DNA of 64,000 bases, taken from positions 4,320,001-4,384,000 of the forward strand of contig CM000153.2 in the NCBI GenBank assembly GCA_000004695.1, given 5' to 3'. Shown here piece after piece: positions 9,334 to 58,505 of this stretch (the first letter of the stretch is position 1; each line of letters begins with the position of its first letter). The translations under genes were made by a program, and so were the position numbers. The notes under the pieces were generated by a model. That model saw nothing but the letters and a program-made list of their open reading frames with translations. It was not told the DNA's origin and ran no database searches. Source of the DNA: Dictyostelium discoideum (lineage: Eukaryota).

Positions 9334-11840
9334 ATGACAACTACAATACCATTAAAAGAAGCAGTGGTTGTAATTTTAGATATAGGATTAGGTATGACAA
9401 GTAAAGATAGTGATGGAACAACAACAACAACATCATCAATTGAAGATGCATTAAGATCAGTTACATTATTATATCAACAAAAATTAATATATGGTAAAAA
9501 GGATCAATTAGGATTAGTTTTAATTGGAACAAAAGGTACAAAAAACAATTTACAAGATGATGGATATCAACATATTACAGTTGTAAGTGATATTGAAGAA
9601 CCATCAATTGAAACATTGAAATATTTAGAGAATTTAGCACCTGGTGAATCAAAAGGTGATGTCATTGATTCATTAATAGTTGCAATGGATATGTTAATTA
9701 GAAAAACTGAAAATAAAAAATATCAAAAACGTATTTTCCTTGTTACAAATGCAAGAGATCCAATTAATACTGAAGATTTATCAATTGTTAGAGATCAATT
9801 TAAAAAAATAGATGTAAAATTAAATATAATGTAATTATTATTATTATTATACTTTTTTAAATTTATTTTTTAAATGTATAAATTTTTATATTAATAAATT
9901 TTTATTATTATTATTATTATTATTTTTATTTATTTATATATAAAAAATAGAGGTGTTGACTTTTTAGAAGAAATAGAAGAAAATAATATGGATACAAGTA
10001 ATAATAATAAAAATAAAAGTTTAAAAGAAAAGAATGAAATATTTTTAAGAGAATTTGCAGAATCAGTTGATGGAGTATTAGTACCAGTTAAACAGGCATT
10101 AGAAATGATGAGCTTTTTTAGATCACAATCAGTAATGACTCGTACAAGTTTTAGAGGTGCATTAGAAATTACACCAGAATTAAAAATACCTGTATGGGGA
10201 TATTTAAAAATGAAACAACAATTATTACCATCCTTAAAAAAGATTTCATCAATAGCTCAACAACAAATTGAGCAACAACAACAACAACAACAACAACAAA
10301 ATAAAAATAAAAATAATGAAGATAATGAAGATAATGAAGAAGGTAAACCAAATATTACATTAGATGTTAATCAAGAAGTATCATATTATAGTATTACAGA
10401 TCCAGATAATGAAATTTTAAAACCAGATTTATTAAAAGGTTATAAATATGGTAAATCATTAATACCATTTTCAAAGATTGATGAGGATCAATTAAAATAT
10501 TCATCAAGTAAATGTTTGAAAGTTGTTGGATTCACAGATCGTAAATCAATACCAATCTATTATAATATGGGTAATACTGAAGTATTTGTATCACAACCTG
10601 GTGATAAACAATCAGAGGAAGCATTATCATCATTTATACATGCATTGGTTGAGACTGATCAAGTTATGGTGGTAAGATATGTAAAAACAATGAATGGATC
10701 ACCTTATCTTGGTTATATGATCCCACATGTAAAGAGTGATTATGTTTGTCTATATTATAATCATTTACCATTGGCTGATGATATTAGACAATATCAATTC
10801 CCACCAATTTCACCAAAGAATCCGTTAACTAGGAAATCAAATATACCAAATGCAGAACAATTGGAAGCAACTCAACAACTCATTGATTCAATGGATTTAA
10901 TGAAATCGGAATTCGATGAAGATGGTGACCCAATTCAAATGTTAAAACCAAGATTCACATACAATCCTTTACTTCAACATTTCTATCAATGTCTTCATCA
11001 TAGATCTTTACATCCAAATACTCAAATTCCAAAATTGGATCCTATAATAGCAGAGTATATTAACCCAGATCAAATCATTATGAATAAATCAAAACAATCA
11101 ATTAAAAACTTTGCAGATAAATTCCCCCTCACTAAAACCACTGTATTCTCTAAAACACCTGCTATCTCTGGTGGCAATACCAATGGCACAACATCCAATA
11201 CAAACAATACAATGATTGGTGGTGTAAAATATCATTGGAAAGATGGTATGTTAATTGGTGAGGAAATTAATTTAGATTCCTATGTCACCGATGATGGTTC
11301 CGAGGCTAAAAAGAGAAAGGTTAATGATTTCTCAGAGTTTTCATTGGATAAGTTGGTCTCTGGTTATGTTACAGAGGTTGGTACAATTAATCCTGTTCAA
11401 AACTTTAAAGATATGTTAAATAGAAGAGATATGGATCTTGTGGATAAAGCAATCACTTTAATGAAGGAAAGAATACTTCAATTGGTTAATGATTCACTTA
11501 GGGATCAATATTATCAAAAGGCTTTCGAATGTATAAAAGAATTAAGAGTTGGTTGTATTAGAGAATCAGAAGCTGAACAATTCAATGGTTTCCTCAAAGA
11601 TATGAGATCTTTATTTCAATCAAAGAAAAGAGATGACTTTTGGCAATATATCACTGCTGATGTAACTTCAATCCTTGGTGAGAAATCAATTAATTTAATC
11701 ACTCAAGATGAATGCGATTCTTCTGAAGTTACTCAAGAAGAGTTGGATCAATTTTTGGATAAAAAGGTTAAACAATTCAATCCTCCTCCAATTACAAATG
11801 TTAATACAGATTCGGTTGATGACTTATTCGATCAAATTGA

Positions 11841-11844
<4 letters not shown>
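9334..11844 (+). CDS. ku80: Ku80 (XRCC5), a non-homologous end-joining DNA-end-binding protein, ~784 aa. Exons are 9334..9830 and 9951..11844.
   Basis: The N-terminal vWA-like region (AVVVILDIGLGM...LVLIGTKGTKNN...VAMDMLIRK) and the Ku core (GYKYGKSLIPFSKIDEDQLKY...VVGF...ALSSFIHAL...VVRYV...PHVKSDYVCLYYNHLPLADDIRQYQF) are collinear with human Ku80 ([21 protein letters not shown]...ALSSLIHAL...IVRY...[26 protein letters not shown]). The donor GTAATT is at 9831 (phase 2) and the acceptor aaaaatag at 9950. Confidence 0.85.
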
Positions 11845-12233: not shown

Positions 12234-13250
12234 TTACAATTTTACCATCATTTTACCAGTATTTGTACCTTTGAATAATGCAAGAAAAGATGGCACCAAT
12301 TGATCGAAACCATTATTAATGGTGTGTCTATCTTTGAGTTGACCAGATTTATACCATTGAGCCAATTCTTTTAATGCTTCAGCATGTTTGCTTGCATAGT
12401 TTGCAACGATGAAACCTTGTAATTTTGAGGAAGTTTTCAAGAGATAACCTTCAATACGTGGGCCAACATCCTTTTCAGTAGAGTTGTATTGTGAGATTAC
12501 ACCGCATAGTGGAATACGGGCAAACTTATTCAAGTGTGGCCAAATTGCATCAGATACAACACCACCAACATTCTCCCAATATATATCAACACCATTTGGA
12601 ATTGCTTTTGCTATATCGTCTTTATAAGTTGGTGAATTGTAATTTACACCGACATCAAAACCTAATTCATCGACGATGTATTTTATCTTCTCTTCGGAAC
12701 CTACGATACCTACAACTCTGCAACCTTTGATTTTACCAATTTGACCGACCAATTGACCTACTGCACCGGCTGCAGCGCTGATTACCATGGTTTCACCTTG
12801 TTTTGGTTCTGCGATCTCTTTGAGACCGTGATAAGCTGTTAATCCGACCATACCCAAAACTGAGAGGAATGATTCCAATGGCGCTAATGTTGTATCGATT
12901 TTATTTGCATATGGACTGTTTGAATTGTAGATGAATTCAGATTGCCATGGTAAATGACCCATAATGTAATCACCTACTGAATACTTTGATGCTGAGCCTG
13001 CTTTTGTAACTTTACCAATAGCATATCCAACAATTGGTTTACCAATTTCAAATGGTGGGATATATGATTTACGTGTTGTCATACGACCTCTCATATATGG
13101 GTCTGGTGAAACTATCTCTAATTTTACTACTACTTCTTCATTTTTTAATTCTTCAATTGAAAATTCAAAAGTTTTCTCTTCAAAATCCTCCAAAGTTGGT
13201 GTACCACTTTCGATGTGATTTTTTAATACAATTTGTTTACTAAGAACCAT
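12234..13250 (-). CDS. NADP-dependent oxidoreductase of the MDR superfamily, PTGR1 (leukotriene B4 12-hydroxydehydrogenase / prostaglandin reductase)-like, 338 aa, intronless.
   Basis: The 338-aa ORF carries the Rossmann glycine motif AAAGAVGQLVGQIGK and shows full-length collinearity with PTGR1-type enzymes. It is a paralog of the gene at 15795..16934. Confidence 0.85.
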   Translation of the reverse strand: MVLSKQIVLKNHIESGTPTLEDFEEKTFEFSIEELKNEEVVVKLEIVSPDPYMRGRMTTRKSYIPPFEIGKPIVGYAIGKVTKAGSASKYSVGDYIMGHLPWQSEFIYNSNSPYANKIDTTLAPLESFLSVLGMVGLTAYHGLKEIAEPKQGETMVISAAAGAVGQLVGQIGKIKGCRVVGIVGSEEKIKYIVDELGFDVGVNYNSPTYKDDIAKAIPNGVDIYWENVGGVVSDAIWPHLNKFARIPLCGVISQYNSTEKDVGPRIEGYLLKTSSKLQGFIVANYASKHAEALKELAQWYKSGQLKDRHTINNGFDQLVPSFLALFKGTNTGKMMVKL

Positions 13251-14491: not shown

Positions 14492-15187
14492 ATGAAACTA
14501 TTTTTATTAATTATTAATTTAATTTATTTGATTAATTATTCAAATTGTTCAACTATATTATTTGCCAATTTTTTTTCATACGCAACAAGTGATTGTAGTG
14601 GAGAATCAATTGGATTTGGATATTCTTTAAAAATTGATGAATGTTTGGGTGCATTTCAACCATTTCAACAAGTTGATGATAATTTTTGGAAAATTGAATT
14701 TAATAAAGAATCAAATTCAATAATTACAACAAGATATAGTGAATGGAATTTTAATTGTAATGGTTCAAGTGATACTCAACAATTTATTATTGGAAATAAT
14801 GAATGTTCAATAATGCCAAATTTCACAGTGATTGAAACTGGTACAATCTCTGGTATGAGTGATATTTGGTATACTCGTGCTTCTATTAGTATTGGTAAAC
14901 CAGAATATACACCAGGTTCCTTATTATCAGTTAGAGAATATTATAATGATAATTCTAGAGGTAATTGTGATATGAATAATTTTCAAACTGCCGTTACCTA
15001 CTCTCAAAATTTAAAACTTTCCATTCAAGATACAAATGAATCAGAAACTTGGTTTTGTAAAAATAATGAAGCACTCGAAAACTTTTGTGATTTCAATGGT
15101 AAAAATTGTCAAATATTCGATAATACCATATCATGCAATCCTTCAGAACAATCTGGAAACCAAAATTGGTATTGTGTAACACCTTGA
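14492..15187 (+). CDS. Secreted Cys-rich protein, 231 aa, with an N-terminal signal peptide.
   Basis: The reading frame is uninterrupted. It begins with a hydrophobic leader (MKLFLLIINLIYLINYSNC) and has about 14 Cys in CxG/CxxC contexts (DCSGES, NCNGSS, NECS, FCKNNEALENFCDFNGKNCQ). No homolog was recognised. Confidence 0.5.
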   Translation: MKLFLLIINLIYLINYSNCSTILFANFFSYATSDCSGESIGFGYSLKIDECLGAFQPFQQVDDNFWKIEFNKESNSIITTRYSEWNFNCNGSSDTQQFIIGNNECSIMPNFTVIETGTISGMSDIWYTRASISIGKPEYTPGSLLSVREYYNDNSRGNCDMNNFQTAVTYSQNLKLSIQDTNESETWFCKNNEALENFCDFNGKNCQIFDNTISCNPSEQSGNQNWYCVTP

Positions 15188-17462: not shown

Positions 17463-20400
17463 AATGAAAAGGTTTTTCATTGTAATATTATTTATTTTAC
17501 TTGTCTGCATTTTTAATGTAAAATCAGAAGAACAATTGGGGGAGATCGAAATATCTAAAAATAGTTTTTCAATTGACACAAATGCCATCAATGTAAGTAT
17601 TAATAAAATAAATTGAAATTATTTATCAAAAACTGGCAAAAAATTAAGCCCTTTGTTTCATTTTTTATTAATTTTTATTTTTTTTTTTTGACTTTTTTCT
17701 TTTTTTTTTTTTTTTTTTTTAATCCCAAAGGCCGAAATTAATTATGTTATTGATAATAGTATAACCAAACCAAAATTAATAGTTACATTATTATCAGGGG
17801 ATGTAAATAGCATAGAAGATATAACATCAATTTCAAAAGATAAATCAACCTTGACATTTGGTGATTTTTCATCATTATCATTAGGCAATAAACAAAGTAA
17901 TAATAATAATAGAATTGTATTAATGATAGCGACAATCACAGGTTCTTTATTATTCATTAGATTTAATATTGGTTTTAATAAATCAACAACATTAATAATT
18001 TTAATTATTGGTACAATCTTTTTAATTGGGTCAAGTCATTCAATAACATTATCAGAAGTTTCAATTCGTATTGATATTAAAGTACCATCAACATTTAAAT
18101 TTGAAAAATTAGATTTGAAATTAGGTTCTGGTTCTTCAAATATTATTGGTTTATCTTCAAATTCAATCAATATTGATAGTTGTTTAAATTTAAAAGATCA
18201 CAAAATCAATTTATCAGACACAACAATTACATCAGCTTTAAATATTTGTTCAACTAAAAATATTGATATTAAAAATTTAAAACAATCATCAAATTCTTTA
18301 ATAAATTTAAAAACAAATTCAAATATTACTTTAAATTTTGGTGTAGGTAATTAATTATTATATATAAAAAAAAAAAAAATAATAATAATAATACATACTA
18401 AAAAAAAAAAAAAAATAGAATGGATATAGTGGTTTATTAGATATTTATAGTAATAGTTTAAAAATCGATGAAGCTTGTGATATTAAAGTGGATGGTTTAA
18501 ATACTACTGGTAGTTGTAATGAAGGTACTTCTTCTAAATTAGTTATCAATGCTAATGGAGTCACAATCACTGGTACTACTCCAACAACCACTCCAACAAC
18601 CACTCCAACAACCACACCAACAACTACACCAACAACTACTCCAACAACTACTCCAACAACTACTCCAACAACTACTCCAACAACTACTCCAACAACTACT
18701 CCAACAACTACACCAACAACTACACCAACAACAACACCAACAACAACACCAACAATAACTCCAACAACTACACCAACAACTACACCAACAACTACACCAA
18801 CAGATTCATGTCCAACAACATCAACATGGAGACCAACAATGGCATCATCAAGTTCACCAAGTTCACCATCATTTTCAAGTGTAACACCAATATTAGATTT
18901 TAATTTTGATAAAAGCAATTTAGGATTTAGATCAAGATATAAGTTCAATGAAAAAAGTATTTCAGATGGACCAAATGGTATTGCAAATTCATTTTCTATT
19001 AATTTTAATGAAACCTATTCACCAGATAGTAATTGGTTAATTTCAAAGATACCATCACCAGCATTAAGAGCCAACGTAAATTATGTATTCTCTTTTAATT
19101 TTAAATTGGGTCAGGCATTATCAAGTGATAATACAATTTCTTCAGTGACAATTTCATTTTATAGTCCAATTGATTTACCAGACCCAAATGTATTGGAATA
19201 TTTCGATCAACCAACTGCTTCACCATTATTTACAAAAACAATTACCACTGGTAGTTTCTCAAGCTCAACAACTTTTCAAGCAAATAGCATATCAATTAAA
19301 CCAACCACTGATATTGGTTTATCATTAATTGCAATTCAAATCATTCGTACCAAACAAAATAGTATTCCAATTAATTTATATTTTAGTGAAATGAAATTAA
19401 GCATTCCATCGAAATCAATTATTGATCCAACAACATTTTTAACTAAAGATTCAGAATTGATTAATATTCCAAAAGCATCAGCATCATTTGATTCACAAGA
19501 TCCATCAACATGTCCATATTTAGCAACTGATTTAGTTCATTGGCATGATAAATCCATTTGGAGTTCTGGTATTGTACCTTTACCTAACGCATCGAGTAAT
19601 ATTATTTTACCAGCTGGTAAAAGAGTTTTAATTAGTCCATGTTCAATTTCACAAACTGATATCTATAAAAAAATAACCATTCCACCAACAAGTGAATTGA
19701 TTTTTAGTGATGTCAATATGACAATGCATGTTCAAGATATCTATGTTCAAGGTAAATTCACTATGGGTACAAAAGAATGTCGTTACAATGCCTATATAAA
19801 TCTAATTTTTCATGGTACTAAAACCACCAGTGATACTATTGCCACCAATTTCGGTTCAAAAGGTATTGCAGTTGCTTCGGGTGGTTTCATTTCAGTACAA
19901 GGTAAACAATATCATAATACTTGGAGTAAATTATCAACCACTGCATGGTCTGGTGATTCTACAATCTATATTCAAGATTCTGTAAATTGGGAAGTTGGCC
20001 AACAGGTTTTAATAACAACAAGTGTCTACAAGGATGAATTGTACAATCAGAATGAGGTTTTAACAATTGCTGCAATCTCTGGTAAGAAAATTCAATTTAC
20101 AAGTGCACTTAAATATTACCATTATGGTGGTCAAGAATATCAAGCAGAGGTTGGTTTACTCTCAAGAAGAATCGTATTCCAAGGTGATCAAAGTTCATCG
20201 GATCCTCAACAATTTGGTGGTCATGTATTGGTTAGTGGTGAAGGTCAATTCTCGGGTTTATCATTGGTTCGTTTTGGTCAAAAAAATATTAAAGGTCGTT
20301 ATCCACTTCATTATCATTTGGCAAATAATGTTCAAAAATCTTATATCTCTGATTGTTCAGTTATTGATAGTTATTATCGTTGTTATACAATTCACGGTAC

Positions 20401-22099
20401 CAATGGTGTGACATTAACTAGAAATGTTGCATTCAATGCCATTGGTCATTGTTATTATTTAGAGGATGGTGTAGAAGTTGATAATACAATCTCTTACAAT
20501 TTAGGTGCTTTTGTTCATACCATTGGCACACCGGCCGCTGGTTACAATCAATATGGTCAAGATTTCCTACAATCATCCGATCTTACTCAACCTGCCGATT
20601 CAGCTGCTGCATGTTATTATATTACAAATGCAGCAAATTCTTTCATTGGTAATGCAGCATCTGGTGGTTGGTCAGGTTTCGCATTCCCAAATTTACCACG
20701 TCCAATAGGTAATCATCTTTCAGTTTCAATAGTACCATCACAATTTATTGCAAAAGTTTGGGAAGGTAATACAGCTCATAGTTCAGGTTATTATTTCGAA
20801 TTTGGTGCTTCAATTTATGTTGGTGGTTTATTAACTTATAATGATGCCACTGGTTTATTACAATATAGTAGTGGTAGAGAATCAAGAGATACCTATTTGA
20901 CTGGATATAACACTTCAGCAGCAGTTTGGATGAGATTTAACAATACTAAAGTTTATCTTAGCAATAGAGGTTTATCAATGTGGGGTGAAAGAACTGAGGC
21001 AGTCAATTTGGAGAGTCATGACTCTAGAAGACCTGCTTCATTATTTGGTGAAGCATGGTTATCAAATGCAATCGTCAATGGTCAATCGGGTAATATCTTA
21101 TCAGCAAGTGTCGAATACACTAGACAAGGTTTCCAATTTTATGATACTTACGTTCAGACCATCATTAGTAATATCATCTTTAGAAATTTTATAAAGTATC
21201 AAAATGCATCATCCAATGAAGAAGATAATAGAGTCATCATTAGTATGACACATAGTTCAGAATTCCTTCCACAAGGTATATCAGTATCAAAGAATATCAC
21301 AATTCAAAACACTGCTACCTCACAATTCATCGGTCATAATATTCCTGTCAATAGTACTGGTAGTAGTAGATTCTTTAATTTCATCGATTGGGATGGTAGT
21401 TTAACAGGTAAAAATGTTCCAACCCTAATTGGATCTCATGAGAAATTTTGGCAATTCGATAATACTTGTTCATTCAATTCAGATTGGAATTGTTATGTTT
21501 GTACTAAAGGTACAAGAGAGATTGCCAATGTTCAATTCTGGGTACCAGGTTTAATTTCAAGAGATGATGCTCAAAATAATGATGATTCAATTGGTAGCAT
21601 TTCATTATTTGGTGATGGAATAACTGATCGTCGTTCAACTAGAGTCATTCATACCGCTGGTATCACTGGTGTTAGTAATTCAGGTTGGTACCTTTATTTA
21701 ACCGATGGTACTCCAACTTATATGAAAATTTGGTTAGCTCAAGTAATTTACAATAATTATCTATTCATTGCAATTCCTTATCCAGCAACTACAACATTCT
21801 CTGTTAGTTCAGAGTATAAATATAATAGTAATTACAATTTCAATTTCACTCAAACATCTTCAGCTTCCGCAGTTAGAAGTGGTGATGGTAAGAAATATTA
21901 TTTCGATGGTACTCATTTATTCATTAAAGTCATTAACTTTAGATTAAATGGTACTGAAAGTTTTGATCGTGGTGGTGCAAAAGTTTACGATGTTTATTGG
22001 GAATTCCTCATTCATATCACTGCTTCAAATACAATAAAGCCACCAGTAAATGGTTTCTTTAAAGGGTTAACTGATACTTTACCATCTTCAAATTTGTAA
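17463..22099 (+). CDS. Secreted G8-domain protein with PbH1 (right-handed beta-helix) repeats, CEMIP/TMEM2-like, ~1,450 aa. Proposed exons are 17463..17516 (signal peptide), 17731..18342 and 18419..22099.
   Basis: The signal peptide is MKRFFIVILFILLVCIFN. A (TPTT)~24 linker occupies 18590-18800. The G8 region reads WHDKSIWSSGIVPLPNASSNIILPAGKRVLI...GKFTMG, and the motif GRYPLHYHL matches the GRYPIHFH of CEMIP/TMEM2. It is followed by TIHGTNGVTLTRNVAFNAIGHCYYLEDGVEVDNTISYNLG. Exon 2-3 joins use the GTAGGT donor at 18343 and the aaaatag acceptor at 18418 (phase 0). The exon-1 boundary is ambiguous (see findings). Confidence 0.7.
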
Positions 22100-28984: not shown

Positions 28985-31900
28985 ATTATTTATAGTTTGA
29001 ATGTTGTATTAATTAATAAATATTAATATTTGAAAAATTAAAGCGCCACCATTACCAGAAAAAAATAATATTATAGCTACAGATTTTAGTTTATATGATA
29101 ATAAAATTATGATTAGTTATTTTTCAATTTATTCATGGAATAGAGCAAATTTAATATCATTATCATTTATTGATAATTTAAAATCAGATATATGTGATTC
29201 TGATTGTAGAATTGAAAAATCTGGTAATTATTATATGATTTATATGAAAATTAATAATTTTGATACAATGACATTTTCAATAAATTCAACATACCATAAT
29301 AATTTCAATTTTGCTCTAACTATTAATGGAATTTTTAAAAATACAAAAAGTAAGTATTTTCATTTTAAAAAATAACAATATAAAAAACTAAATATAAAAC
29401 AATTTATTAATAAATGAATAAAAAAAAAAAAAAAAAAAAAAATTTTAGAAGCTAATATGGTAATTCCAACAAACGTTAAATTTTATCCATCGGGTCCATT
29501 TATAAATAGATTTAGTGTTAATAGTTATAGCTATAGTTTAATTAATTTAGATTCAGATGAACCAATTAAATATTTATCATCAAACTATGTAAATTCAAGT
29601 GGTTTTGAAAAATTTGAAATTCAAATGAGTCAAATAATTTTTACAAATAAATTATCACAAGCATTTTTAAATCAAAATCATTTAATGAATGAAGCATATT
29701 ATGAATATAGATATTGGAATAATCAAACAATAAATAATAATATTAATCAAGTTAATAAAAATGAAAAGTTATTATCACCACTTTACCAAATTGAATCATA
29801 TATAAATGGAGATGTTGTATCGGGTCCTCCTTTTACTACATATACAGCTTCGATAGGTGCAATGGATTTTTTAGGTATTGGTTCAATAAATACTAAAACT
29901 CTTTCATTCCCAATGGTTTTAATGTATCCACAAATATCATTTACAAAGTATTATTCATTCCCATTTGGATGTAGTGTTGCAAATGAATCAACATATATAA
30001 CATCGATAACTCAACCAATGAGTAATGGTATTCAAGGAACTTTAAAAGTTTTTATTGGTGGATCAAATGTATATAGTGTAGATGCTAGTTCAATTCCAAA
30101 GGAAACTTTAATATTTTCATTGGAATTTATTTATATTGGTTTTAATAAATTCATGGTTAAAACTAAAATTGGGGGTGATTTTTATTTTATAACAAGTCAA
30201 AGTTATGATTTTGATTTTGCTGTTGTTAAAGCTACTGGTTATGATGGTGTTGGATCATATTCTAATATTTTTCAACCTTCATTTGGTCAATTTAAAGATT
30301 TTACAACATTCAGAGCATTTAGTGGTGATTTAAAAGAAACACAATTACCAAAACATTTATTACCAAGAATTCCAAATTTAAATGAAATCATTGAATCACC
30401 AATAATTAATTCATTAAAATTTGAAGTTCAATCAATGAATACAACCGATGTTGGTGGATTAAATACAGTTTATTTAGGTTTTAATAATTTTGACTTTAAA
30501 CATTCAATTTTTCATCATCCATCATTTATTTTATCACCTAAAAGTTTATCTTCAAATATTCATTTTCATAAAGCAATACCTTTCACTTTAATTGATGAAA
30601 ATAAAAAATTATTTAAAGCAGAATTTTATGTACCAGCTAATTTACCAACTGGAGAAGTTGATTATTCAATTGTAAATAATGTTGGTTATGAATATACTTC
30701 AAGTTATATTAAATCATATTTATTAAATAATCCATCAACTGATAGTAATGTGAATGATACATCGTCATTATATACTTATTCAGAATATGGTTATTCATTA
30801 CCACCAATAATTAAATCGTATTCATTTGAAAAAGAAATAGTTGAAATTAATGATTTACAAAATTTAAATAGAATTAATTTAACAATTCAATTACAACCAT
30901 CAAGAAATCAATTTGATAACGGTTTCATTTCAATTGAAAGTTCAAGTATTACTACATTTAGAAAGATGTATTTTAATTTTTCATTTACAAATGAACAATT
31001 AGTTGGCGGTACAAATGATACATTTACATTTGAATTGAAATTTCCATGTTTTACAAGTAAATATGAAATTATAAATGTTACATTGATTGATAAACAAGGC
31101 TATTTATCCTCATTTAATAAATATTCATATAATGGTGATATTACTACAACAATACCATTACCAATTGACCCATTCATGATTTTTAATACTGTGAAGGGAT
31201 TTAGTGTGCAATGCAATCAATTGGCAATTCTAGAATCATCTCCAATAATTACATCATTAACCGCAAATTTAAATTCAATAATAACTAATTCACCAATTAC
31301 AAAAGATTTACAATTTACTCTACAAGTTAAAGATCCAATTGGTTTAATGACAGAATCACAATTACCATTTATTTATTTAGTTGGTGGTTTAATTGATGAT
31401 ACTATTAGAATACCTTTTGAAATTTATCAATATAATGATACATTTGCGACTTTTAAATCGAATCCTATCACTGTCCCATTTGGTTTTGGTTTACCATTTT
31501 TATCAATTCCATTATCAGTATATGGTATTTGTAATAAAGTTGGTATTATTAGTGGATACAATAAAAATCAATTAAAAGGAATGAATAACACACAAATTAT
31601 CCATGAAATTCCAATTGTTTCAATAAATTTAACCAACATACCAATAATTTTAGATTCATCAGCATTCTATAGTATAGGTGGAAATTTAACATTATTTGGA
31701 AAGAATTTACAAGATGCTTTATCTGTTAACGTTTTAATTCAATCAACCCAATTATCATATCCAGTAATTGGAAATCAAAATGAAAGTTATTTAACAATTA
31801 ATTTACAACCAATTAATGAACCATTTTATGTTAATATAACCAATAGTAATTTATTTTTAATAGTTCCAATTCAAGTGCCCAATAAAGTTAATGAATATAA

Positions 31901-32984
31901 AATTGTACCATCAACACCAATACCAACAAATCCTCCTCAAAAATGTATTGGTAATCCACAATGTGGTGGAGCAACACATGGTACATGTACTGAATCAGGT
32001 TGTGTTTGTTTTTCACCATGGATTGGTGAATCATGTAATTCAAAAGTTTTAGTTATTACGCCACCAATTGTTAATCCAAATACACCATCAACTAATTTCA
32101 CATATCATGATAAAGATAGTGAATCTGAAATTGCAGGTATAATATCATTGGTTGAATTGAGAGAAATCGATTATGAATCAAAACCAATCAAACGTTATCC
32201 ATTCGATAAATGGATATTGACAAAGATTAATCCTAATGAAAATTTTTATACAACTTCAATTTTAGATAATAATAATAATAATTCAAAATTAATTTGTAAT
32301 GTAACTGTATCAAGTATTTGGTATGAACAACTTACAGTAATTACATTTGCGGATCAAAAGATTACTATGGATCCATCTACATTGAAATATAATATCAATA
32401 TAACTTCATACCCATTCTCAAATAAATTAAATACTCTTCAATTGGTAATTTCTGCAAGTGCAAAAGAAACAAATAATAATTCAAAATCAGATTATTGCTC
32501 ATCTAGTTCCTATGGTAATACAGTTTTAGATAATTCAAATTATTTAAAACTAACAATTAACTATCAAAGTATTTATGGTAAATTTATAAAAAGAGGTATA
32601 ATTGATTTTAAAACAATATCAATTGGAAATTCTCAATTAGCCTTAAATGATCCAATAATTGAAAATGATCATGGTGATGAGGCAATTACTTCAACCTTTC
32701 AAAAATCTTTTATTGCTATTAATATTCCATATTATATATTTCTTGCTCAACTTGATCCATCTTTTTCAGTTTTAGTTAATCCAAACTTAAATAATGATGA
32801 AAATTCAATTTGTAGTCAATCAAACGATCATTCTATTAATGAAAAACTTATCATTGGTATTGTTGTTGGTGTAGTTGGTTTTACAATTGCATTAGTGGTG
32901 GTTATTATTATAATCATAAAGAAAAAGCATCATTTAAGACGTTTACAATATAAAATTAAATTAAAAAAACAAAATAAATTATAA
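28548..32984 (+). CDS. Large type I membrane glycoprotein, ~1,413 aa, with a signal peptide, a single EGF-like module and a C-terminal TM helix. Exons are 28548..28947, 29044..29349 and 29449..32984.
   Basis: The signal peptide is MKLLFFLIFFLLINFNIFV. The EGF-like module is CIGNPQCGGATHGTCTESGCVCFSPWIGESC. The TM segment IIGIVVGVVGFTIALVVVIIIII is followed by the basic tail KKKHHLRRLQYK. Donors GTAAAT at 28948 and GTAAGT at 29350 both leave phase 1. The acceptors are ttaaag at 29043 and ttttag at 29448. Confidence 0.65.

Positions 32985-41113: not shown

Positions 41114-44082
<2,969 letters not shown>

Positions 44083-53321: not shown

Positions 53322-58505
<5,184 letters not shown>

Follow-up and report, generated by a model that had tools for sequence, protein, structure and literature searches.

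Does a Dictyostelium discoideum protein that resembles the animal proteins TMEM2 (CEMIP2) and CEMIP/KIAA1199 act on hyaluronan or on a different glycan, and how far does its gene extend? The window analysed here comprises 64,000 nucleotides of contig CM000153.2 (4,320,001 to 4,384,000), and positions are counted from its first letter. The locus is a three-exon protein-coding gene of D. discoideum AX4, and its product belongs to the long forms of the dictyostelid ComF family (Table 1). Taking gene model and function together, we consider it likely that the product is tethered to the cell surface and that its beta-helix, carried on a Thr/Pro stalk, attaches to a polysaccharide outside the cell and probably also cleaves it; the glycan-binding or glycan-cleaving function is inferred.

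Table 1. Features of the gene and its product, with positions in the window
Feature	Positions	Strand	Description
Exon 1	17464..17592	+	start codon, signal peptide (MKRFFIVILFILLVCIFNVKS...), first strands of the N-terminal module
Intron 1	17593..17730	+	GTAAGT...AG, phase 0; stops close the frame
Exon 2	17731..18342	+	bulk of the N-terminal beta-solenoid module together with its hydrophobic hairpin
Putative membrane hairpin	17902..18027	+	two hydrophobic helices, spliced aa 101-120 and 127-142, short N/K loop
Intron 2	18343..18418	+	GTAGGT...TAG, phase 0
Exon 3	18419..22099	+	continuous ORF directly after the AG acceptor, TAA stop included
Spurious antisense ORF	18445..18948	-	167 aa, poly-VVGV, in the ORF list
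(TTPT)19 array	18575..18802	+	12-nt period, spliced aa 300-375, one unit ITPT
CBM-like beta-sandwich	18881..19408	+	after the conserved CPxxxxWR motif; AF2 strands pLDDT 84-97
G8 domain (PF10162)	19559..19936	+	E=2.3e-31, profile positions 2-124 of 124
CEMIP-type beta-helix (PF24606)	20210..20785	+	E=4.3e-50, profile positions 1-207 of 212
Invariant cluster	20300..20500	+	Y498, H501, H503 (RYPLHYH), H529, E552, G554, E556 (LEDGVE), N559, N564
CEMIP domain X-like segment	21692..21931	+	inside the C-terminal beta-sandwich region; PF24605, TMEM2 aligns weakly

A preliminary description had placed the gene at 18419-22099. This interval is indeed a single open frame from an AG acceptor to a TAA stop, but it represents the last exon only; the gene starts at 17464 and has two further exons upstream. 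The ATG of exon 1 has an A/T-rich region upstream of it, the GTAAGT donor follows at 17593, and the product of this exon aligns to the N-termini of the long-form paralogues (LGEIEIS...), with no gap across the intron 1 junction in the protein alignment to P0040 and P0045. For intron 2, only one donor/acceptor pair keeps the frame, and the resulting junction, NFG/NGYSG, aligns gap-free with QFS/NGFSG and KFY/NGYNG of the paralogues. An alternative donor that would retain the residues GVG (exon 2 end at 18348) was rejected, as there is no GT at this position and the paralogue alignment does not contain the extra residues. The 28 top-scoring dictyostelid homologues align to 98-100% of the exon 3 query, and the GC content of this exon is 0.28-0.43 as compared with 0.15-0.23 in the flanks. 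A model with exons 1-2 and exon 3 as separate genes was likewise discarded, since upstream of the repeat exon 3 offers no start codon that would be followed by a signal peptide, and the initial 52 residues of exon 3 extend the homology of the N-terminal module (N-module). The spliced product of 1473 aa consists of a signal peptide, the small beta-solenoid N-module, which is interrupted by the two hydrophobic helices, a (TTPT)19 linker of 76 residues, a CBM-like beta-sandwich, the G8 domain and CEMIP-type right-handed beta-helix, and C-terminal beta-sandwich domains.

With the full spliced protein as query, only low-complexity Thr/Pro matches were obtained, and the homologue search was rerun without the repeat. 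All 70 homologues contain G8 and the beta-helix, among them ComF (DDB_G0273257) and DDB_G0286897, with 59% and 63% identity, respectively, over 98-100% of the query. Across the ComF family, the body following the linker is collinear (55-67% identity, 98-100% coverage), with the same Pfam pair, the CPxxxxWR start, the CBM-like domain and a C-terminal LPSSxL end; this full-length homology and shared architecture place the protein in the family. It also has the N-module of the long forms, i.e. signal peptide, beta-solenoid, hairpin and four cysteines. Unlike in all other retrieved members, a Thr/Pro tandem array is present at the junction of N-module and body. ComF and D. firmibasis RB653_008572 are short forms, in which the signal peptide is directly followed by the CPxxxxWR body. 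About five paralogues are found per dictyostelid species, and relatives occur in algae and protists. In a simple neighbour-joining tree, calculated without support values, the body groups with the short-annotated proteins D. firmibasis 008572, T. lacteum 06555 and H. album 10671 and not with the other long forms.

The neighbouring ORFs at 12234-13250 (minus strand) and 14492-15187 (plus strand) are exact AX4 proteins, XP_637847.1 and DDB_G0286307. Protein database searches returned neither an exact copy of the 1473-aa product nor an orthologue with more than 67% identity, and the identity of the gene with DDB_G0286311 therefore rests on the neighbouring genes and the gene numbering. As the reference genome already lists the gene under a named family, its detection is ordinary and adds little. 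No functional study of comF, of the DDB_G loci or of CEMIP relatives in Dictyostelium was found in the open-access literature.

The motifs on which the preliminary description had based its assignment, WHDKSIWSSGIVPLPNAS...AGKRVLI and GRYPLHYHL, were both located, at about 19541-19632 and 20294-20320. The Pfam comparison it had proposed gave 108.7 bits for G8 (cut-off 22.9), making this a G8 protein, and 170.8 bits for the contiguous CEMIP_beta-hel profile (cut-off 27.3). The only sequence match in the PDB was TMEM2 (8c6i_A, E=5.4e-33), which was also the top fold match, with a resemblance to the TMEM2 ectodomain over about 770 residues. The original reading of a CEMIP/TMEM2-like G8 and beta-helix protein is supported. 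The AF2 model had a pLDDT of 94.5 and a pTM of 0.92. No Pfam family matched the region of the CBM-like sandwich; Foldseek aligned it with CBM4, CBM16 and related modules over 165-206 alignment columns (E about 1e-3, prob 1.00). The signal peptide, beta-solenoid, hairpin, CBM-like domain and absence of GG-type lectin domains had escaped the preliminary description, as had the fact that the Thr/Pro array is an insertion.

There are clear differences from the animal proteins. The identity to TMEM2 is 17-22%. The animal family has two GG-type (PANDER-like) lectin domains, the first of them inserted after G8; here no such domain matched in Pfam at E<=0.1, and the stretch of about residues 166-270 of the TMEM2 chain, which separates the two blocks aligned by HMMER, is without equivalent in the query. 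The CEMIP domain X profile (PF24605) scored 21.4-23.3 bits, below its cut-off of 27.6 bits, and some paralogues have a precomputed match. An N-terminal CBM-like sandwich is present here instead, and whereas TMEM2 is anchored by a type II N-terminal helix, the amoebal protein would be anchored by means of a signal peptide and an internal hairpin. The next fold matches were beta-helix enzymes active on polysaccharides: GH87 alpha-1,3-glucanases, the Klebsiella K1 capsule lyase, phage tailspikes, and alginate lyases and epimerases. With such beta-helix depolymerases, among which we also count the PL6 alginate and chondroitin B lyases, the identity is 6-13%; the likeness does not go beyond the fold, and there is no family-level sequence match.

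The N-module is 44-49% identical to its long-form counterparts in pairwise BLASTP comparisons. A word-indexed search with the N-module alone gave zero matches, and an exhaustive HMMER search found it confined to long-form dictyostelid G8 proteins (three representatives). Its hairpin helices were found by a hydropathy scan and by structure prediction, the latter with moderate pLDDT values of 55-63. The position of the hairpin is kept in 17 of the 18 aligned long-form homologues, the segment being absent from P0065, while its sequence is not conserved; in the long-form alignment the connecting loop is rich in K/R. Four cysteines after the hairpin, C194, C216, C267 and C280, are invariant in long forms. 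According to the predicted topology, the signal peptide would be cleaved and the hairpin would anchor the protein in the plasma membrane, with the K/R-rich loop in the cytosol and both flanks outside.

An alignment of 53 homologues, with sequences from amoebae, algae and metagenomic relatives, has 17 invariant columns. They include the cluster residues listed in Table 1 and N654 (20768-20770), and these are conserved in human TMEM2 according to the HMMER alignment. The cluster is a putative active or metal site.

We propose that the beta-helix would bind, and probably cleave, an extracellular polysaccharide. Dictyostelium is not known to have hyaluronan or a hyaluronan synthase, which speaks against a true hyaluronidase, and because of this the likely substrate would be the amoeba's own matrix (slime sheath, spore or stalk wall) or the capsule or exopolysaccharide of bacterial prey. 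TMEM2 and CEMIP, for which hyaluronidase activity has been reported, are the closest solved structure and the closest named family, but hyaluronan cannot be assumed as the substrate from this likeness. The identity is low, and the GG lectin residues R265, D273 and D286 of TMEM2, which like CEMIP R187 are sites of inactivating mutations in that domain (PMC10206443), have no counterpart here. As the number of paralogues and the algal and protist relatives also argue for other substrates, we regard a hyaluronidase as extremely improbable. A soluble secreted enzyme, whose hydrophobic segments do not span the membrane or whose body is shed by cleavage at or near the linker, with the array as a flexible interdomain linker, would fit the modest pLDDT of the hairpin helices and the existence of the short forms, which indicate that the body can function without the N-module. 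This too appears very unlikely to us, since the stretches of about 20 hydrophobic residues are kept in position, vary in sequence and are joined by a basic loop, as is typical of membrane helices.

The weightiest alternative to a surface-tethered depolymerase is a non-catalytic glycan-binding receptor for adhesion or signalling, whose beta-helix and CBM-like domain would only bind a glycan of the matrix or the cell surface, in a family engaged in developmental cell-cell communication. One paralogue is called Communication mutant protein F, a name which reportedly goes back to the screen for communication mutants by Kibler et al. 2003 (cited in PMC4403905), and the fold neighbours of the two modules include beta-solenoid adhesins. 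In one study, no hyaluronidase activity was detected for TMEM2 and no active site could be assigned to its ectodomain (PMC10206443); a purified TMEM2 ectodomain was reported to be active in a later study (PMC10474455). The dispute over TMEM2 activity and the absence of the GG domain that bears the inactivating-mutation residues both weigh against the favoured reading. Against a purely binding role stand the 17 positions that are invariant from amoebae to algae and kept in TMEM2, with a His/Glu/Asn cluster on successive coils, a pattern that is seen more typically in catalytic or metal sites than in binding surfaces. The nearest folds outside the family are, in addition, mostly depolymerases. 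We therefore think a receptor without catalytic activity rather unlikely, and favour the surface-tethered protein that binds and probably cleaves a polysaccharide. The communication gene related to this locus is comF; comC, which was also considered, codes for an EGF-domain protein (PMC4931340).

One might speculate that the 17 invariant columns form a catalytic or metal-binding centre common to the whole CEMIP/TMEM2 superfamily, and that the Dictyostelium family could lead to an ancestral substrate other than hyaluronan; we consider this possible, though doubtful. This reading covers RYPxHxH, a stacked His, ExGxE and three Asn on successive coils of the beta-helix, all of them kept in human TMEM2. 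If true, a family of five paralogues, one of which has a glycosylated stalk of 76 residues, would allow the substrate search to be carried out in a genetically tractable system; in Dictyostelium, mutating the cluster and looking for substrates would both be easy. TMEM2 and CEMIP matter in medicine, and their activity has been contested. The value of the amoebal family is comparative and modest: it shares the G8/beta-helix core and the cluster and has no GG domains, and hence separates ancestral features from those specific to hyaluronan handling in animals.

The Thr/Pro array lies in a protein with a signal peptide and has folded modules on either side, as expected of a mucin-like stalk. Thr/Pro-rich O-glycosylated spacers are found in Dictyostelium surface glycoproteins, for instance as the spacer of PsA and the stalk of contact site A. 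Like these, the array is a short Thr/Pro tandem repeat between a membrane anchor, here predicted, and an extracellular globular part; it differs in that it links two folded extracellular modules and does not adjoin a GPI or transmembrane anchor, and its glycosylation is putative. Dictyostelium has a mucin-type O-glycosylation pathway in the Golgi, which uses O-GlcNAc (PMC3188802). The array may be O-glycosylated via the Golgi polypeptide alpha-GlcNAc-transferase pathway and could then form an extended, protease-resistant stalk, by which the CBM-like domain and the beta-helix would be held off the membrane. It had been described as 24 perfectly periodic copies of TPTT. TRF gave 19.0 copies (94% matches, 0 indels, score 344), and the list of units contains 18 TTPT and one ITPT, so that the copy number has to be corrected. 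The period of 12 holds throughout without indels, but the units are not identical, as they vary by synonymous changes at third bases. The two-unit pattern was expected 0.00 times in shuffles. Adjacent identical units occur in blocks, and the array may therefore have arisen by slippage or unequal exchange at the module boundary. It offers a clean case of a recent repeat insertion exactly at such a boundary. The antisense ORF, rightly called spurious in the preliminary description, is a by-product of the repeat, because the reverse complement of (ACN ACN CCA ACA)n is free of stops in all frames. An ORF in the +2 frame at 18549-18758, encoding LQQP repeats, has the same origin.

The window gene belongs to a named family and is annotated in a model organism, and its spliced product of 1473 aa combines a G8 domain with a CEMIP-type beta-helix, as the preliminary description had proposed. 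The motif WHDKSIWSSGIVPLPNAS...AGKRVLI used there to identify the G8 domain starts near 19541, GRYPLHYHL, named there with it as a hallmark of the CEMIP/TMEM2 family, is encoded at 20294-20320, and the Pfam comparison suggested there places G8 (E=2.3e-31) and CEMIP_beta-hel (E=4.3e-50) far over threshold, with a sub-threshold match to CEMIP_X. A search with the part following the Thr/Pro repeat yielded 70 proteins, all of which carry G8 and the CEMIP beta-helix. The top 34 are dictyostelid (45-67% identity), among them 'Communication mutant protein F' (ComF, DDB_G0273257) at 59% and DDB_G0286897 at 63%; remoter relatives come from algae and metagenomes. Dictyostelid species have around five paralogues each, with two architectures. 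In the short forms (~1100 aa), the signal peptide is directly followed by a conserved CPxxxxWR motif; the long forms (~1400 aa), to which the window protein belongs, have an additional N-terminal module. An exhaustive HMMER search through 1.84 billion representatives recovered this module in just three cluster representatives, all of them long-form dictyostelid G8 proteins. Two 'short' homologue models, P0038 (T. lacteum DLAC_06555) and P0039 (H. album PPL_10671), begin 6-7 residues before CPxxxxWR, lack a signal peptide and are probably truncated annotations without the upstream exons, so that the two classes are blurred in the clade nearest the window protein. The homologue P0053 (H. album PPL_10508, 1734 aa), a G8/beta-helix protein with additional PARG (PF05028) and PF20811 annotations, is probably a fused gene model and not a genuine architecture.

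The interval initially described, 18419-22099 (+), is a real, single open frame starting directly 3' of an AG acceptor, and its GC content (0.28-0.43) exceeds that of the flanks and the short upstream intron (0.15-0.23), but it is only the last exon, with two more lying upstream (Table). Residues 1-299 of the window protein share 44% identity with the N-terminus of DDB_G0286897 from D. discoideum (P0040) and 49% with that of P0045, a paralogue from D. citrinum. Both splice junctions are gap-free in these alignments, with NFG/NGYSG in the window protein aligned to QFS/NGFSG and KFY/NGYNG in the paralogues, and this homology supports the predicted three-exon gene model. Two separate genes, one comprising exons 1 and 2 and the other exon 3, were ruled out because exon 3 offers no signal-peptide start ahead of the repeat and opens with 52 residues that still belong to the N-terminal module.

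Table. Exon boundaries of the window gene and neighbouring genes
Feature	Position	Strand	Remark
Exon 1	ATG 17464	+	signal peptide of typical kind, MKRFFIVILFILLVCIFNVKS...
Donor 1, GTAAGT	17593	+	after codon 43
Exon 2	frame resumes 17731	+	directly after AG; to donor 2
Donor 2, GTAGGT	18343	+
Acceptor, TAG	18416-18418	+	upstream of exon 3
Exon 3	start 18419	+
Stop, TAA	22097-22099	+
Ku80-type gene	9988-11844	+	Ku, Ku_C, Ku_PK_bind
Zinc-containing alcohol dehydrogenase	12234-13250	-	exact match to AX4 XP_637847.1
DDB_G0286307	14492-15187	+	exact match to AX4 protein

The three neighbouring genes (Table) assign the window to D. discoideum AX4. In the AX4 gene numbering, the second gene past DDB_G0286307 would be DDB_G0286311, and from this neighbour we infer that the window gene is DDB_G0286311. 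No match above 67% identity was obtained in the protein search with the post-repeat part, although the collection includes numerous proteomes of D. discoideum, D. citrinum and D. firmibasis. Exact products were found there for two small neighbours, but not for the window gene or most of the large ORFs in the window. Either the index lacks the cluster or the annotations of those proteomes lack close orthologues.

The Thr/Pro array spans 18575-18802, with 19.0 copies of a 12-nt period, 94% matches and no indels (Tandem Repeats Finder, score 344). A unit-by-unit listing likewise gives 19 units, and not the 24 claimed previously: 18 encode TTPT and one ITPT (ATA for ACA), all other differences being synonymous. 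Identical units adjoin in runs, for example six consecutive ACTACTCCAACA, as slippage or unequal exchange characteristically leaves them. The two-unit pattern has 0.00 expected occurrences in shuffled sequence, and elsewhere in the window it matches only plain (ACA)n/(CAA)n arrays. When (ACN ACN CCA ACA)n is read in reverse complement, no frame holds a stop codon, so the 167-aa poly-VVGV antisense ORF (18445-18948), correctly called spurious at the outset, is a by-product of the repeat; the +2-frame ORF at 18549-18758 is another. No retrieved homologue of either form has a Thr/Pro array ahead of CPxxxxWR, and the array is therefore an insertion precisely at the boundary between N-terminal module and body. 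Long (ACA/CAA)n arrays at 41686-41747 and 42262-42341 (+) and at 55883-55971 and 56904-56950 (-), within large ORFs of 979 aa and 1486 aa, are usual Dictyostelium homopolymer tracts with no relation to the 12-nt array.

The post-repeat part (1096 residues) was modelled with AlphaFold2 from an alignment of 53 sequences (mean pLDDT 94.5, pTM 0.92). Its first ~200 residues form a beta-sandwich that matches no Pfam family and resembles CBM4, CBM16 and related carbohydrate-binding modules (Foldseek E ~1e-3, prob 1.00); this CBM-like domain between linker and G8 was missing from the layout first proposed. Apart from the signal peptide, the sole strongly hydrophobic stretches coincide with two predicted helices of the N-terminal module, conserved in position, not in sequence, in 17 of 18 aligned long forms (the segment is missing from homologue P0065). 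The loop between them is short and K/R-rich and is followed by four invariant cysteines. These sequence features support, without proving, a membrane hairpin with both flanks extracellular.

With CEMIP/TMEM2 the window protein shares G8, the beta-helix, a portion of the C-terminal region and a number of motifs; in the TMEM2 structure, G8 is part of the beta-helix (PMC10206443). Seventeen columns are invariant across all 53 aligned homologues, nine of them inside 67 residues: Y498, H501 and H503 (RYPLHYH), H529, E552, G554 and E556 (LEDGVE), N559 and N564. In the HMMER alignment, these residues and the invariant N654, farther along the protein, are also present in human TMEM2. As their spacing of ~25-28 residues corresponds to successive beta-helix coils in the AlphaFold2 model, they likely stack on one face. 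This cluster has comparative value for the CEMIP/TMEM2 mechanism and is the sole point that might merit follow-up. Pfam detected no GG-type lectin domains here, and in the HMMER alignment nothing in the window protein matches the TMEM2 stretch that separates the two aligned blocks; this stretch corresponds to lectin-like domain 1, which carries R265/D273/D286 (PMC10206443). The protein thus has a CEMIP-like core but is missing one of the features that define the animal family. The original interpretation is supported, with corrections to the repeat number, the exon count and the domain layout, in which the GG domains are absent and the CBM-like domain is added.

The open-access literature yielded no functional study on a family member from Dictyostelium; ComF was reportedly named after a screen for communication mutants by Kibler and colleagues in 2003 (cited in PMC4403905). 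In the best-supported combined reading, the window protein would be tethered at the cell surface, and its array would be O-glycosylated by the mucin-type pathway that exists in Dictyostelium (PMC3188802), forming an extended spacer between the membrane-proximal beta-solenoid and the CBM-like and beta-helix body, which would bind, and probably cleave, some extracellular polysaccharide distinct from hyaluronan. In the main rival reading, the protein would be a receptor that binds glycans and has no catalytic role. To our knowledge, no active site has been assigned in TMEM2. TMEM2's own activity is contested, as one study did not detect it (PMC10206443) and another did, reporting that it depends on calcium (PMC10474455).

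The extreme C-terminus of the window protein, LPSSNL (22079-22096, +), follows an LPSS-x-L pattern shared with 10 of the 18 aligned dictyostelid long forms, and also with ComF and the homologue P0037; the homologues P0060 and P0061 end in LPSI/LPSL. This terminus is no GPI signal, because it is not hydrophobic, and is possibly a sorting or processing motif. Around 7 kb downstream lies a ComC-like ORF (29457-32984, +; 1175 aa) with ComC_SSD (PF22933, E=1.9e-9), DUF7949, DUF7035 and a weak teneurin-like EGF match; the ComC-like and ComF families both take their names from 'communication mutants'.
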